This document shows, in pieces, positions 10,455 through 63,400 of a DNA stretch of 64,000 nt. A program made the position numbers and the translations under genes. This stretch comes from Candidatus Woesearchaeota archaeon. GTDB taxonomy: Archaea > Nanobdellota > Nanobdellia > Woesearchaeales > GW2011-AR9. Location: assembly GCA_018696595.1 (NCBI GenBank), contig JABHQW010000008.1, forward strand, positions 224,001-288,000, given 5' to 3'. The notes beneath the pieces are model-generated. The model made no database searches. It saw nothing but the letters and a program-made list of their open reading frames with translations, and was not told where the DNA came from. Position 1 is the stretch's first letter. The number at the start of each line of letters is the position of its first letter.

Positions 10455-11273
10455 TTATTTTTTCTTTTTAGCAGTTAAATAACTTTTAAAGATATAAACG
10501 TGTTCCCACACAGAAACAGAAATTTCTATCAACAAGATAAAAGTAACTACCACTATTGCAATTCCATAAATTTGATTAACTAATAATTCGCTTAAATTCT
10601 GAATATTGTTTTTAACAACAGAAACAAAGATTAAGATTGCTAATACAACTAACCAGGTAACTAAAGATTGATGCCCGTGGGTTTTAACAAAATGGAAATC
10701 CTTTTTCAAAGAGTTGTATGCCCCTTTTTTTTCAAATGTCATTACAGGATAGACAAAGAGTAATCGAATTGAAATAAATACTAAATAAACAAGCATGACT
10801 GGGAGGAATATTGCTGCCGCCAATAAAGCATTTGAAGGTAATAAGAAAAATAACACAATCCCTAAAAGTGTTAATGGTACAAAAATAATCAAATAACTTA
10901 AAATGTGAATCCCTAAAGTTGTTAAGTAATGTTTGTTAGCAAATTTAACCCCTCGAATAAAATCTGTTTTTCCTTTCAAAAGAATATCTTTGATCATGCC
11001 ATATTTAGCAGTTAGTAAATAATTGTCAATTAGTACTACTAGAATCACATAAATAGCTAGGAAAATCCAAGAACTGGGGGTTTGTAAGACAATCTTAAGT
11101 AATGAGTATTCACTACTAATAAAAACATCAAGAATACCAGTAACTAACAAGAATAAGTAAACTAAAATTAGATTTACAGTTAAGATTAAAAGATTAGGAA
11201 GAAAAAGTATTTTGTTATTTTTAACAATTCTCCAACTTACTTCAAACGGGTTTTCCCTCTTTTTTCTCTTCAT
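10455..11273 (-). CDS. Polytopic membrane protein of unknown function
   Basis: About 6 hydrophobic segments. Confidence 0.7.
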   Translation of the reverse strand: MKRKKRENPFEVSWRIVKNNKILFLPNLLILTVNLILVYLFLLVTGILDVFISSEYSLLKIVLQTPSSWIFLAIYVILVVLIDNYLLTAKYGMIKDILLKGKTDFIRGVKFANKHYLTTLGIHILSYLIIFVPLTLLGIVLFFLLPSNALLAAAIFLPVMLVYLVFISIRLLFVYPVMTFEKKGAYNSLKKDFHFVKTHGHQSLVTWLVVLAILIFVSVVKNNIQNLSELLVNQIYGIAIVVVTFILLIEISVSVWEHVYIFKSYLTAKKKK

Positions 11274-11399
11274 AGCTTAAAAGAAAGGATTTGGGTTATA
11301 TATAGTTTTTGTTTGCGGTTGTGCATTAATTCCCTCGTGATTCCCATTATTTCACATTATTTATATACTAATTAACTATTGTTAACTTAGGTGATAAAA

Positions 11400-11579
11400 A
11401 TGGGCTGCAAGGTTTGCGATATTGAATTAACTGCAAGTGATTTATTTTATTGCAATTCTTGTGAAAATATCAGAAGACGATGGGAAGTGTATTGTGAGGG
11501 TAATAATTTTTATAAGAAAAACGGAAGAAACGGGCAACCGGGAAGGAAAAAAAGTACAAAATGGAATCAAACGAACTAA
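11400..11579 (+). CDS. CxxC-pair microprotein (putative Zn ribbon)
   Basis: MGCKVCDIELTASDLFYCNSC...; SD AGGTGA before ATG 11400; first gene after a TATA box. Confidence 0.65.
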   Translation: MGCKVCDIELTASDLFYCNSCENIRRRWEVYCEGNNFYKKNGRNGQPGRKKSTKWNQTN

Positions 11580-12136
11580 AAATAAATGAACAAGCACCAA
11601 AGTTTACAGCTGAAGCGTTACATCAAGGAGAAATAAAAAAAGTTAATTTAGATGACTATAAGGGAAAATGGGTGGCCTTAGTTTTTTATCCAGCAGATTT
11701 TACTTTTGTTTGTCCAACTGAGTTAGGAAGCTTAGCTGATAAATATGAAGAATTCAAGCAAGTAAATACAGAAATAATTAGCATTAGTACAGACACTGTT
11801 TTTGTCCATAAAGCGTGGGCAGACAATTCTGAAACAATTAAAAAAATTACTTATCCAATGTTAGCGGATCCGACTGGAAAGATTTGTCGAGCTTATGGGA
11901 CTTATTTGGAACACGAAGGCCTAAGTTTAAGGGGGACATTTATTGTTGATCCTGACGGAGTTCTAAAAGCTTACGAATTACATGACAATAGTATTGGTAG
12001 AAATAGTGAGGAGTTGATGAGAAAAATCAAAGCGGCTCAGTTTGTCTATGAGCATGGAGATAAAGTTTGTCCAGCTAATTGGCAACCTGGAAAAGAAACA
12101 TTAAAGCCAGGATTGGATTTAGTGGGAAAACTTTGA
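11561..12136 (+). CDS. ahpC: 2-Cys peroxiredoxin
   Basis: FYPADFTFVCPTEL and VCPANW. Confidence 0.95.
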   Translation: MESNELKINEQAPKFTAEALHQGEIKKVNLDDYKGKWVALVFYPADFTFVCPTELGSLADKYEEFKQVNTEIISISTDTVFVHKAWADNSETIKKITYPMLADPTGKICRAYGTYLEHEGLSLRGTFIVDPDGVLKAYELHDNSIGRNSEELMRKIKAAQFVYEHGDKVCPANWQPGKETLKPGLDLVGKL

Positions 12137-12171
12137 TTTTTTTAATTTATGTTTTTGAGGGGGTGTTTTAA

Positions 12172-12303
12172 ATGAAAAATGTATGCGAACTATGTGATGA
12201 AATGTTAGAAAAAAAAGACACAGAAGCAATAGATTATTGTGATCTGTGTAATGATGAGAAAGGAAAAGAGAAAAGATTAAAAAGTTCTTGCTCTTGGTGT
12301 TAA
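12172..12303 (+). CDS. 43-aa microprotein with three CxxC motifs; not in ORF track
   Basis: MKNVCELCDEMLEKKDTEAIDYCDLCNDEKGKEKRLKSSCSWC; strong SD GAGGGGGTG at 12157-12165; fills the ahpC-sod gap. Confidence 0.7.
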   Translation: MKNVCELCDEMLEKKDTEAIDYCDLCNDEKGKEKRLKSSCSWC

Positions 12304-58920: not shown

Positions 58921-60012
58921 TCAAAATTCTAGGAGTATTTTTTTATTCTTCAAATCAATCCCTTTGATCTTCTTAACTTTTTTCAACTCGCTTTCAATCT
59001 CTTTCCAATCTTTACCTTCTTTTCTTGCAGATTTAACAAAATCAATAATCTTTTGTAAGGGTTGGTAGTTCTCATAAACAGTCTCTCCCTTTTGGGTATT
59101 TAATACAATCTTATCTTCTTGTTTCTTAATCGATTTTTTCTGGTTAGAAATTATTCCTTTAGCCGAAATTATTCTTTGTTCATAGGGAGATATAATCTCA
59201 AACGGATTAAGAATATTGATTGCTTCATTATACGTTTCAGTTTTCTTTACTACTTTCTCCTCATTAGTTAATTCAAAAGGGGTTATCTGATTTTCATAAA
59301 TAAATCCAGAAGGTTTCTCAATAACTTTCAATAATGTTTTAATCCCTTTAATAATTTCTTTAATCTCTTTTTCAGTAACATCATTTTGTAATTTGTCTTT
59401 ATCAACATCAGCTAATCTACAAATCTCTTCTGCATATAATCCACCAAATCCCACTTCTGTAGCAATTGAAGTAGCCAAATTCTTTTTATCACTCTTTTTC
59501 AAAACAGTAGTTAACTCTTTCTCATTCAACTTTTTCCAATCAATTCCTGGCGTAGGAAAAACATACTTCTCTTTCACTCTGATATTACGATCTTTCCATT
59601 TCTTTTGTTCAAGGGCAGCAATAATCATATCTTTAGAGTCAGTCAAAATCAAATTTCCACGAGAGAACAATTCAATAATTAGATAATACTTCTCCTTTTT
59701 TTCAATTTCAAAAACAATAATTCTTTCAGCGCCTTTTTGTTCAATCTTTCTAATAGAAGCGTTATCCAAATATTTCCTTAATTGCATACAGAATGAAGAT
59801 GGTTTTAGGGGGGTATCTTTCCGCGAAGTCAAACAAAGAAATTTTCCAGGAACAATTTTCAATAATTGTTTGCCTTCGCCTTTAGCATGTAACTGAAATA
59901 ATAGCTCCATCTTTTCCTGGTGGTAAACTTGCGATATTCTTCCATCTACTAAGAACTGTAATTCGTTAATAATCGCTGCTAGTTCAAGTGAAGCTAATCC
60001 TTTTTTGTTCAT
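58921..60012 (-). CDS. NFACT-N (Rqc2/RqcH-like) protein lacking C-terminal NFACT-R/C domains
   Basis: FCMQLRKYL, ERII, IELFSRGNLILTD, GFGGLYAEEIC. Confidence 0.8.
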   Translation of the reverse strand: MNKKGLASLELAAIINELQFLVDGRISQVYHQEKMELLFQLHAKGEGKQLLKIVPGKFLCLTSRKDTPLKPSSFCMQLRKYLDNASIRKIEQKGAERIIVFEIEKKEKYYLIIELFSRGNLILTDSKDMIIAALEQKKWKDRNIRVKEKYVFPTPGIDWKKLNEKELTTVLKKSDKKNLATSIATEVGFGGLYAEEICRLADVDKDKLQNDVTEKEIKEIIKGIKTLLKVIEKPSGFIYENQITPFELTNEEKVVKKTETYNEAINILNPFEIISPYEQRIISAKGIISNQKKSIKKQEDKIVLNTQKGETVYENYQPLQKIIDFVKSARKEGKDWKEIESELKKVKKIKGIDLKNKKILLEF

Positions 60013-60058
60013 AGTGTTAAGAAATCGTCTGTTTATATAAAAATATTCTTTTCTATAG

Positions 60059-60232
60059 CTTCATCCAGAATAATAACATTTTGTATACTGCCTGCAATAG
60101 GCGCATTTTTGGAGTAGGGCACGGCACCTTAGATTTTACTCATAAAATTCGTAAAATGTGCCTCCATTGGCGCCACTCCAAAAATCCACGCGCCGGCACG
60201 CAGTATACAAATTCATTTTATTCTAGATGAAG
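60059..60232. repeat. Long multi-helix imperfect hairpin D
   Basis: CTTCATCCAGAATAA/TTATTCTAGATGAAG, TTTGTATACTG/CAGTATACAAA, GGCGC/GCGCC, ATTTTTGGAGT/ACTCCAAAAAT, GGCAC/GTGCC, ATTTTAC/GTAAAAT. Confidence 0.75.
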
Positions 60233-60243
60233 TTCTTTTCTAT

Positions 60244-62865
60244 CTATTCAATCTCAAATCGAAGTATAGCAGCAATGCCGCCTAAATCTCTAAGTTGTGC
60301 CCCTTCTCTAGTTTCTGTAGAAATAATCCTAACTTCTGCACCACCTGCTTGTGCCTTCTCTTCCAAATCAAAAATCTTATTTTCAGGAATACTCTCTGAA
60401 ATTAGTAAAATGTCAACTGCGGCCATTTCTAAAGCTTTCAATGTTTCTTTCTCCCCATAAGTTGCTTTTTTGGGCGTATCTCTAAGAGTGCCTAAGAATT
60501 GTTGCATAATTTTTTTCTCGTGAGCAATTTCTTCTTCTGATAAAAGGTCTTCAGATTTTTCTAATAATTCTTGCAATCCAAAATCTCCGGTATACGATAA
60601 ATCTTTAGTACCAATAATTTTTTTCTTTACATCTCCAGTAATATAATCTTTATTCATAAAATCGTTAATCGTAACACCGGGGCCACCAATAATAATGCCT
60701 TTCAAATCTTTTCCAAGAGGTAAGAATTGATCTTTCATATATTCTGCAATTTTTTTAAAATGATCTTTAGCAGCACCTTCTCTTAGACGAGCGAATCTTT
60801 GAGCAGAATTATGAACTATTAATCCATTTGCTATGAAGTTTTGATTGCCAACAGAAATGTCAATCATTTCAGTTTCTTCATTTCTTTTTTCAATATTAGC
60901 AATCTTAACCGGCAAAATGGGGCTATTATAAACTTCTTCTAATTGTGTATATAATTTCTTATCTTTAACACAAGACAAGATAGAACTCTTAAATGTTTGT
61001 TTACTCATCATTCTCTCATTTCTAAAGAAGTTTGTTACTTTTGGAAATTGGTTTGTGTTGTAACCAGCGTTTTCAATTATCTTTCTGATTTTCGAACCAG
61101 AAGCAATAATTTGTCTGACATTACTCTTATTTGATCTTAAATCAATACTCTTTTCTAATTTTTGTGATTTTTTATTACAAGTAAATCCAATTTGTTCTTT
61201 AAATAATTCTAAAGATTTCTTTTCTGTAATGTCAATTGTAAAGCGAGGATTATCACTTAGTGGATTTCTTCTATTGTCATATTCATGTAAAGAAGAAATG
61301 ATTCCAAATCTTAACAAAGCCATTTGTATTTGTTGTGCCAATATTTTGTTATTTATTCCAAATGCAGCCTGTTTTCTTTGAGAAACATAACCTTCTGCAT
61401 CAAAAAATCCTTTCACAAAACTTGCAAGAATTTTATTTGGAGAATTTAATATTTTTTCGGGAATTAAAGAATCTCTTGCTTTTTTTATTTCTGGAAATTC
61501 TGTTTGAATTAATCTAACTAATGGTCTACTTGTAAATCTTAACTGGTGGTAATTCTTACTTTCTCTAAATTTATAACTACAATTCAGATCAAAGTGTTGA
61601 TCAAACAATTCTTTATAATGTAAAGCAAGATCTTTACTTTGTTCAAAGAAAGTAATTCTATCTTTTTCTATACAACCATCACCCATTAGATAACCTAAAA
61701 ATTGAGCGAGATTTGCTTCAAGAAGAACCGGCAATTTGATGTTTTTGTATAGTTCAGGAGTAGTATAGTTATTTAGGAAATCATAAAAATCAATTTCTAA
61801 GGCCGCACAAAGCTTTTGCAAAGGAATTCTTCCAATATTTCTTTTTCCTTTTTCGTAAGTTGATATTGCTGTTTGGGTAAGCCCAGTAAGTTTTGCAACA
61901 TCTCTCTGAAATAAACTTTTTTCTTCTCGTTTTCTCTTGATTTGGTTTTGTCCTTCTTTATTTATTTTGAAAGAATTATAATATTGAACTGCTTTGATGG
62001 TTTGAAGTTTACCTTCTACTTCTATTTTTTCAGGCATAATTAGAAAATCTCCTTCTTGAAGTTCTTCAGCGGCTTTTTCTTTGATTCCATTCTCAGTTTT
62101 CACAAAGAAAATATGGTCTTTAGAAGATTCTACTTGTAGTCTTGGATATTTTGTTGTGATCTTGTAAACTTCATGTTTTTTGGCATTCCATTTATCTGTA
62201 ATTGGTGAATCTTTAATTGAGTGACTTTCCATAACCATACTCTTGAGCACAATTGGGTTATGGGAATTTTCAATTTTTAAGATGTCTCCCTGAGTGGATT
62301 GAATTAATGTTCCTTTCATACAACATTGTCCACCTGCTTTAGTTTTTCCAGGAACTTCCGAATGTGTTTTTTGCATTGGGACAATAGATTTTCCTTTCAA
62401 CAGAGCAATGGTTGCATCCCTTCTATCCATAACAACAAGACCATAAACTTCTTTGTTAACCATCATTTCTTCTAATAAATCAGTTACAAAGTTTTTATCA
62501 CAACGATAAATACGTGTGTTTAATTGGATTGGTGGTTCAATACTCCAAACTCGAACATCTTGTTTACCTTCTCCTGCGGCAACGTTTCCAGAAAAAACCG
62601 CAAAACCATTTTCTGGTGTGTTACCAATAGTTCTTAAATGTTGAATCATTTTTTCCAAAGCATTCTGGACATTCTTTCTAGTAGCAGCAGATTTAATGTT
62701 TGAAGCGGTTCCTTGCTCTTCTGCTAGATGTTGAATAATTTTTGTCATATCATAACCAGAAGGGATGTAAACTGTAACAAACTCTGTATGTGGAGCCTTA
62801 TGGCTACGTAACTCACTTACTATTTTTTTCAGTTTCAGTTTCTCTTGTGCGGTTATCGCTGCCAT
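60244..62865 (-). CDS. prf1: Peptide chain release factor aRF1 containing an intein
   Basis: TASNIKS, YRCD..F, GGQ then SAQRFARLRE after intein removal; spliced product 367 aa. Confidence 0.95.
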   Translation of the reverse strand: MAAITAQEKLKLKKIVSELRSHKAPHTEFVTVYIPSGYDMTKIIQHLAEEQGTASNIKSAATRKNVQNALEKMIQHLRTIGNTPENGFAVFSGNVAAGEGKQDVRVWSIEPPIQLNTRIYRCDKNFVTDLLEEMMVNKEVYGLVVMDRRDATIALLKGKSIVPMQKTHSEVPGKTKAGGQCCMKGTLIQSTQGDILKIENSHNPIVLKSMVMESHSIKDSPITDKWNAKKHEVYKITTKYPRLQVESSKDHIFFVKTENGIKEKAAEELQEGDFLIMPEKIEVEGKLQTIKAVQYYNSFKINKEGQNQIKRKREEKSLFQRDVAKLTGLTQTAISTYEKGKRNIGRIPLQKLCAALEIDFYDFLNNYTTPELYKNIKLPVLLEANLAQFLGYLMGDGCIEKDRITFFEQSKDLALHYKELFDQHFDLNCSYKFRESKNYHQLRFTSRPLVRLIQTEFPEIKKARDSLIPEKILNSPNKILASFVKGFFDAEGYVSQRKQAAFGINNKILAQQIQMALLRFGIISSLHEYDNRRNPLSDNPRFTIDITEKKSLELFKEQIGFTCNKKSQKLEKSIDLRSNKSNVRQIIASGSKIRKIIENAGYNTNQFPKVTNFFRNERMMSKQTFKSSILSCVKDKKLYTQLEEVYNSPILPVKIANIEKRNEETEMIDISVGNQNFIANGLIVHNSAQRFARLREGAAKDHFKKIAEYMKDQFLPLGKDLKGIIIGGPGVTINDFMNKDYITGDVKKKIIGTKDLSYTGDFGLQELLEKSEDLLSEEEIAHEKKIMQQFLGTLRDTPKKATYGEKETLKALEMAAVDILLISESIPENKIFDLEEKAQAGGAEVRIISTETREGAQLRDLGGIAAILRFEIE
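60808..62325 (-). mobile_element. Intein (506 aa) with XRE-type HTH and LAGLIDADG homing endonuclease
   Basis: Starts C-CMKGTLI, ends FIANGLIVHN before Ser+1; LGYLMGDG and FVKGFFDAEG; HTH QRDVAKLTGLTQTAISTYEKGKR. Confidence 0.93.
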
Positions 62866-62889
62866 GTTTATGTTAGAAATGGAGTGTGT

Positions 62890-63360
62890 TTATAAGAATT
62901 TTGCAATCTTTTTAATTAACTCTCCCTTGCCAAACCTTTTACCAGTATCAATCGTAATAATCTTGTGTTTTCTTTCTTTAGATTCATTTAAACAGATTTG
63001 AAAAATCTCTGCATCTAAGTTCTCACGAACCTTTTTCTTAGAATATTTTCTGTCTTGCAATCTTTTCTCAAGTTTTTTCAAATCAGAACAAGTTAAAACA
63101 ATACATAAATCTACTTTCTTCAACAAATGAGAAATGTGAGAATCAACAATAAGATTCTCTCCTTTAGACTTCTCTTTAACTAACTTCTCCAACTTTTTCA
63201 AATCAATGTCATAACATTGTTTACTTCTATCGTAACCAGTAGAAATTTGTTTGTAATAATGGTGTAAGTCTAATCTAGCAAATTTTAACTTTTTCTCTAA
63301 GTATTTCGTAAGTGTGGATTTGCCAGTACCAGGCGTTCCAGTGATTGCAATAACTTTCAT
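62890..63360 (-). CDS. AK6/Fap7-type nucleotide kinase
   Basis: ITGTPGTGKST, DSHISH, L..RL..R.YSKKKVREN.DAEI. Confidence 0.88.
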   Translation of the reverse strand: MKVIAITGTPGTGKSTLTKYLEKKLKFARLDLHHYYKQISTGYDRSKQCYDIDLKKLEKLVKEKSKGENLIVDSHISHLLKKVDLCIVLTCSDLKKLEKRLQDRKYSKKKVRENLDAEIFQICLNESKERKHKIITIDTGKRFGKGELIKKIAKFL

Positions 63361-63400
63361 AGACATAATAAAACTAAAGAAGAATATAAATGTTTAGTTA

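Follow-up and report, generated by a model that had tools for sequence, protein, structure and literature searches.

An intein with a LAGLIDADG endonuclease core in the GGQ loop of the archaeal release factor aRF1

The interrupted aRF1 gene

The window analyzed here comprises 64,000 nucleotides of a Candidatus Woesearchaeota genome (assembly GCA_018696595.1, contig JABHQW010000008.1, positions 224,001 to 288,000), and all positions given below refer to this stretch unless another contig is named. On its reverse strand lies the gene for the archaeal release factor aRF1, the reading frame of which contains an insert of 506 residues. We consider it highly probable that this insert is a canonical class-1 intein with a LAGLIDADG homing endonuclease, placed in the sole aRF1 of the organism between Gln180 and the serine of the GGQ/S loop (the slash marks the insertion site). 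The host is a small marine archaeon of the Woesearchaeales type (DPANN), represented by a metagenome-type assembly of 1.19 Mb in 8 contigs with a completeness of 97%. The gene is organized as follows.

60244..62865 (-): aRF1 precursor open reading frame, 873 aa plus stop codon, with eRF1_1, eRF1_2 and eRF1_3, NIKS, YRCDKNF and GGQ
62326..62865 (-): N-extein, aa 1-180, last residues KAGGQ, defined by translation and Pfam, 89-91% identical to intein-free congeners
60808..62325 (-): intein, 506 aa, precursor aa 181-686, from Cys1 to His-Asn
60247..60807 (-): C-extein, aa 687-873, first residue Ser+1 (SAQRF)
61996..62325 (-): N-terminal HINT region, intein residues 1-110, with block A (Cys1), block B (Ser68-x-x-His71) and a beta-strand HINT fold in the model
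60808..60927 (-): C-terminal HINT region, intein residues 467-506, with block F (Asp489, Phe497) and block G (His505-Asn506)

The precursor is encoded by a single uninterrupted frame of 873 codons without stop or frameshift. Its translation displays NIKS at aa 56-59, followed by YRCDKNF and by the canonical GGQ at aa 178-180, which is retained in the N-extein. The Pfam domains eRF1_1, eRF1_2 and eRF1_3 were found in the exteins above the curated cut-offs, the eRF1_2 match being split into two stretches by the intein. With domains 1-3 and the NIKS, YxCxxxF and GGQ motifs all present, the host protein is identified as a release factor.

The insert runs from base 62325, which opens the codon of Cys181, to base 60808 (1518 nt). 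It starts with Cys-Cys-Met, ends with Val-His-Asn and is followed by SAQRFARLRE. A first-pass annotation made from the letters of the sequence had placed an intein at 60808-62325 directly after GGQ and had stated that removal of 506 aa restores GGQSAQRF with Gln as residue 180. Pfam, translation and the empty junctions of congeners described below agree with this placement to the base, and excision in the translation indeed rejoins GGQ/SAQRF. Within the insert Pfam detected Intein_splicing (E 1.7e-19), two LAGLIDADG_3 domains (E 1.1e-20) and HTH_3 (E 6.7e-10). As sequence matches these are all above the curated cut-offs and far beyond chance.

Residue conservation was determined in an alignment of 147 homologous inserts taken from public proteins. 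Cys1, His505-Asn506 and Ser+1 served as the extraction pattern for this set, and the same residues were present in every full-length homologue inspected by eye. Block B, which reads Ser68-Lys-Asp-His71, has His71 in 147/147 and Ser or Thr at position 68 in 147/147 homologues. Asp489 and Phe497 of block F are likewise invariant (147/147). In addition, the C-terminal HINT region scored above the cut-off of TIGR01443 (intein_Cterm). The insert thus combines Cys181 at position 1, Ser687 at position +1, blocks B, F and G and the HINT fold, which are the features of a class-1 intein. A redox function suggested by the Cys-Cys start was rejected because the second cysteine is not conserved: intein residue 2 is Leu in 93/147 and Cys in 16/147 homologues.

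A six-frame eRF1_2 search of the 97%-complete genome revealed no second aRF1, which was a check proposed with the first-pass annotation. The one other match was a Pelota-like gene, the product of which has 351 aa and lacks GGQ. Since the sole aRF1 of the genome carries the intein, termination would depend on the spliced product, as had been claimed before. All class-I release factor activity must then come from spliced protein, provided that the predicted splicing takes place. Searches of the genome with PF14890 and TIGR01443 detected no further inteins.

Endonuclease core, accessory modules and predicted structure

Between the two HINT regions the intein contains an endonuclease core that is flanked by two helical modules.

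61177..61764 (-): LAGLIDADG homing endonuclease core, intein residues about 188-383, with the motifs GYLMGDG and FFDAEG and two LAGLIDADG_3 matches
61765..61995 (-): XRE/Cro-type helix-turn-helix (HTH) module, intein residues about 111-187, with Pfam HTH_3 at intein residues 129-182 and five helices in the model
60928..61176 (-): second helical accessory region, intein residues about 384-466, consisting of helices in the model and conserved across homologues

An AlphaFold2 model of the intein was built on 68 sequences and reached a predicted local distance difference test (pLDDT) value of 94.8 and a predicted template modelling (pTM) score of 0.93. The modules follow one another in the order beta-rich HINT-N (1-110), five helices (about 112-187), endonuclease (188-383), helical region (384-466) and HINT-C (467-506). 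Foldseek returned as top matches the inteins TliVMA (7qss), PI-PfuI (1dq3), PI-PkoII (2cw7) and PhoVMA (7qst) with E values of 5e-24 to 2e-16. The Foldseek probability was 1.00 for five solved archaeal inteins. PI-SceI and the family of the free-standing I-DmoI ranked below the archaeal inteins, and a sequence search of solved structures retrieved the same archaeal inteins as Foldseek.

The endonuclease core shows the properties of a monomeric two-motif LAGLIDADG enzyme. Both motifs end with an acidic residue, and the core has the alpha-beta-beta-alpha-beta-beta-alpha fold, for which Foldseek matched I-DmoI, I-Tsp061I and PI-PfuI. The motif acid Asp216 (GYLMGDG) is conserved in 146/147 homologues, and position 311, a glutamate in this intein, is Glu or Asp in 147/147. 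Mean pairwise identity was 57% for the endonuclease, 59% for HINT-C, 51% for HINT-N, 49% for the HTH module and 50% for the second accessory region. The endonuclease is consequently the best conserved module after the short HINT-C region. For the whole intein the mean pairwise identity was 55% versus 60% for the exteins.

The HTH module was assigned to the XRE family on the basis of its five-helix fold, with helices at residues 123-187 of the model, and an HTH_3 score of 39.3 bits (Pfam cut-off 23). In 9/147 alleles this module is missing while the rest of the element is retained, and HTH-less forms were also encountered in the genome surveys of the order and the phylum. One HTH-less allele (P0105) with intact flanks falls within a group of close relatives that bear the module. 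Judged from these alleles, the rest of the element can do without the module, which was lost repeatedly, in one case inside a tight clade. According to Beyer and Iwai (2022, PMC8966425), the accessory domains of endonuclease-bearing inteins are diverse and affect the cutting of the target; in TliVMA and PI-TkoII they look like DNA-binding helix-turn-helix domains. The XRE module of the aRF1 intein is a variant of this known theme, and the second helical region would be the counterpart of the TliVMA and PI-TkoII accessory domains (PMC8966425). By analogy, both modules most likely lengthen or strengthen the contact with DNA.

Distribution, horizontal movement and genomic surroundings

In a comparison of 29 species, both other species of the genus were found to possess an uninterrupted aRF1 gene that is 369-375 codons long and 89-91% identical to the exteins. 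The DNA of both congeners is continuous through GGQ/SAQRF, so that they represent precise empty sites. At the same site, two further genera from the family of the host have mini-inteins of 133 and 144 aa, which have kept blocks A, B, F and G and lack an endonuclease. Full-size copies are present in about 30/401 species of the order. Carriers amount to 38/401 high-quality genomes of a phylum sample, among them 15 that belong to other orders of the class and 6/41 in the family of the host. Overall about 9% of the sampled species of the class carry the intein. Copies with internal stop codons were observed in two genomes (G404 and G459). Thus the intein-plus and intein-minus alleles, the mapping of which had been proposed with the first-pass annotation, comprise empty, full, HTH-less, mini and decaying forms within one archaeal class.

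Public data contain at least 120 full-length homologues with 54-74% identity, all of about 870 residues, which fall into dozens of clusters at 50% identity. The rarity implied by the first-pass annotation is therefore contradicted by these homologues and by the share of about 9% of species; by sequence, the aRF1 intein is common at the GGQ site in its lineage. Two distant aRF1 homologues, P0173 (1187 aa) and P0183 (1452 aa), carry besides the GGQ intein a second one inside YxCxxxF, where the sequence reads YLYM/C...VHN/CDDH. Because of these two proteins we assign at least two intein insertion sites to aRF1.

The first-pass annotation knew of no characterized aRF1 intein, and a full-text literature search, with most subscription journals outside its coverage and hence no proof of absence, found no paper on an aRF1 or eRF1 intein. 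Some homologues bear the JGI product name 'eRF1/intein/homing endonuclease'. The objection, foreseen in the annotation, that the site might already be catalogued as common thus holds in half: the site is common and partly named by JGI, but no paper describing it was found. Many such aRF1 genes are named 'helix-turn-helix domain-containing protein' or 'LAGLIDADG homing endonuclease' at NCBI. As a practical point of annotation, these names hide an essential gene.

Intein and extein trees were calculated for 38 full-length proteins. A clade supported at 100% in the intein tree was rejected by the extein alignment, the log-likelihood of which fell by 207 (p 4e-5 in the approximately unbiased (AU) test). 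A clade supported at 100% in the extein tree was in turn rejected by the intein alignment with a fall of 504 (p-AU 2e-39). The clades were chosen after discordant identities had been seen, so these p-values are optimistic, while the effect is large. Discordant pairs share 83-91% identity in the intein versus 46-57% in the extein, and the reverse pattern was also seen. At the DNA level, the pairs at hand were almost identical or else saturated. The histories of intein and extein conflict strongly, which shows horizontal movement of the intein.

Metagenome runs of marine or seawater origin, at least 20 in number and drawn from at least 15 studies, contain near-identical copies of the aRF1-intein gene; no RNA run was among those listed. 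A single contig of 2850 nt from one independent seawater run spans the entire intein-bearing gene with 4 differences, and both intein junctions are bridged by separate seawater contigs. In two other runs contigs that are at least 90% identical to the exteins cross the site without intein. They translate as VPGKTKAGGQ/SAQRFERLR and GKTKAGGQ/SAQRFARLREGA, the latter contig having a depth of about 112, compared with about 4-5 in the case of the intein. These contigs show that the same habitat holds carriers as well as empty targets. Single low-depth contigs with short sides also display skips of 450, 370 and 66 nt inside the gene; these were ascribed to other organisms or assembly noise.

The aRF1 gene is preceded on the same strand by a P-loop gene of the AAA_18 type (adenylate-kinase/Fap7-like, 62890-63366 (-)). 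Only 24 nt (62866-62889) separate its stop codon from the aRF1 start, and owing to this spacing and the shared strand the two genes are probably co-transcribed. Directly downstream of aRF1 a protein of 363 aa is encoded (58921-60012 (-)), whose match to NFACT is limited to the N-terminal and middle domains. The NFACT family (RqcH/Rqc2) belongs to ribosome quality control and has a usual length of about 650 aa; no C-terminal part was found downstream of the 363-aa protein.

Between the aRF1 stop codon and this gene lies a near-perfect hairpin of about 143 nt (60072-60214) with a fold z-score of -6 to -7 on either strand. Full copies with 84-94% identity occur at least 4 times in the genome, alongside several that are partial. 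At the spacer (60011-60232) the depth of the seawater contigs is very high, and variants without the central 67 nt are found among them. The spacer was rejected as a tRNA or known RNA, since ARAGORN, with and without introns, and Rfam gave no match. It is a repeated palindromic element and looks similar to a miniature inverted-repeat transposable element (MITE).

Elsewhere in the genome (G000), three more LAGLIDADG_3 matches were found in short free-standing frames of 201-242 aa (C1:36224-36445, C2:56648-56881 and C3:151847-152077), and one further weak match contains an internal TGA. From their sequences these frames may be intron-encoded or free-standing homing endonucleases.

Proposed splicing and homing, and comparison with known inteins

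In the proposed mechanism the 873-aa precursor would be inactive, as it would carry 506 residues at the tip of the domain that enters the peptidyl-transferase centre. Cys1 (Cys181) would attack the carbonyl of Gln180 in an N-S acyl shift, and the N-extein would be transferred to the hydroxyl of Ser+1. Cyclization of Asn506, aided by His505 and Asp489, would release the intein, and an O-N shift would yield a normal 367-aa aRF1 with GGQSAQRF. The freed 506-aa intein would be a monomeric two-motif endonuclease with the XRE HTH and the second helical module as extra DNA-binding parts. Alleles of aRF1 without the intein would be cut by it at the sequence that codes for GGQ and would receive the intein through recombinational repair.

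The spliced aRF1 would then become a substrate for Mtq2-like methylation. That splicing has to precede methylation of the GGQ glutamine, as the first-pass annotation held, is plausible in that a suitable methyltransferase is present; the order of the two events is what we infer. An Mtq2-type glutamine methyltransferase with NPPY and a TIGR00537 score above cut-off is encoded on contig 5 of the genome (about 11014-12231, L017:1495-2712 (+)). At its C-terminus this enzyme carries a fused extension of about 220 residues, which gave only a weak ATP-grasp_4 match. Its partner Trm112 was not found with PF03966, a model of 40 positions, so that this result is no evidence of absence.

Taken together, empty sites, mini-inteins, decaying copies, sporadic spread and tree conflict identify the insert, as far as sequences can tell, as a mobile homing intein and thus an ordinary selfish element. 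Several points weigh against this assignment. Whereas anatomy, conserved residues, fold, presence/absence pattern and horizontal movement are shown by the data, we infer that the precursor splices, that the intein cuts DNA and what the HTH module does. TIGR01445 (intein_Nterm) gave no match in the genome, and the first intein residue covered by the Pfam Intein_splicing match is residue 31. In sequence, block A is accordingly atypical, yet this is no defining failure given the HINT fold and the invariant Cys1. The intein-free seawater contigs, which are about 8% divergent, probably stem from sister species and not from the same population, and the AU-tested clades were, as mentioned, selected afterwards. 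Finally, homing would require DNA to pass between DPANN cells.

It is unlikely, though worth weighing, that the intein splices while its endonuclease no longer cuts, which would make it a vertically inherited relic on the way to a mini-intein. Relatives have met this fate, as the mini-inteins and the copies with stop codons demonstrate, the sequence gives no direct readout of activity, and the closest intein-bearing relatives fall into broadly the same clade in both trees. Nevertheless, this intein and nearly all of the 147 homologues have kept both LAGLIDADG acids and the surrounding glycines, the endonuclease core ranks with the best conserved parts, and the open reading frame has neither stop nor frameshift. 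The intein-free congeners fit an intein that was gained or lost recently better than one that has been resident for long.

A domesticated intein, in which conditional splicing gates termination or the freed XRE-HTH protein regulates transcription, appears very improbable. It would be in keeping with an insert in a stretch of residues indispensable for termination, with an intein nearly as conserved as its extein (55% versus 60%) and with an XRE-type HTH like that of restriction-modification controller proteins. Moreover, other archaeal inteins are known to splice conditionally according to work cited in Novikova et al. 2016 (PMC4760082). If true, domestication would explain why the conservation of the intein comes close to that of an essential host protein, and conditional splicing at the GGQ loop would tune the supply of active release factor after translation (by redox state, temperature or metal). 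However, the element is sporadic, with about 9% of species as carriers and both congeners without it, and its tree is at odds with that of the exteins. Conservation does not extend to the Cys-Cys start, the HTH was lost repeatedly without loss of the remainder, and HTH-like accessory domains of endonuclease inteins serve the binding of the DNA target (PMC8966425). The post-translational switch proposed in the first-pass annotation consequently found no support, the distribution being that of a selfish element and not of a fixed regulator.

An assembly chimera, or an aRF1 pseudogene with the function supplied elsewhere, might be suspected in a metagenome-type assembly of 8 contigs, but its probability is negligible given the frame open through both junctions, the seawater contigs that contain the whole gene and bridge both junctions, over a hundred homologues with identical architecture and the lack of any other aRF1 found in the genome.

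The homing intein preferred here leaves the understanding of inteins or release factors unchanged. It adds a termination factor to the short list of intein-carrying translation proteins, at the most conserved loop of aRF1, and is a clean natural example of inteins settling in sites which the host cannot change. Within one archaeal class the full homing cycle is represented, from empty through full, HTH-less and mini to decaying forms. Carriers and empty alleles in the same seawater make the family a good system for homing in uncultured DPANN archaea, and it lends itself to the question of how a modular XRE HTH contributes to the recognition of the target.

Among known systems the archaeal aIF2 intein shares with the present case the location in a core translation factor, although it concerns initiation and not termination (PMC4760082). 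In the main text of Novikova et al. aIF2 appears among the archaeal intein hosts and translation proteins are described as carrying few inteins; that main text makes no mention of a release factor as intein host (PMC4760082).

The closest relatives in architecture are TliVMA and PhoVMA (7qss, 7qsu, 7qst; PMC8966425), in which a two-motif LAGLIDADG endonuclease is likewise nested in HINT and joined by an accessory domain that binds DNA. TliVMA (7qss) is the best structural match (E 5e-24, TM-score 0.75 normalized to the target) and also the best sequence match, and its accessory domain is helix-turn-helix-like, as in the aRF1 intein. In contrast to aRF1, the host protein of these inteins is the V-ATPase subunit A of Thermococcales, and the identity is about 15%. 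Compared with 7qss the aRF1 intein has an extra XRE HTH_3 between HINT-N and the endonuclease, visible as about 50 unmatched residues in the phmmer alignment.

PI-PfuI (1dq3) and PI-PkoII/PI-TkoII (2cw7) are multi-module inteins as well, in which extra domains ('stirrup', domain IV) flank the endonuclease core. They differ in their hosts, ribonucleotide reductase (RNR) and DNA polymerase, and in their accessory folds. PI-SceI from yeast VMA1 (1vde, 1lws; E 2e-12) is the textbook case of splicing plus homing. It resembles the aRF1 intein in combining both functions with a DNA recognition region; however, this region is inserted within HINT, and the domains are arranged differently, with a root mean square deviation of about 25 Å overall. 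The XRE HTH itself aligned over about 65 residues with C.BclI (2b5a, E 3e-8) and C.AhdI (1y7y, E 1e-3). These are free-standing dimeric transcription regulators of restriction-modification, whereas in the aRF1 intein the domain is embedded between HINT-N and the endonuclease.

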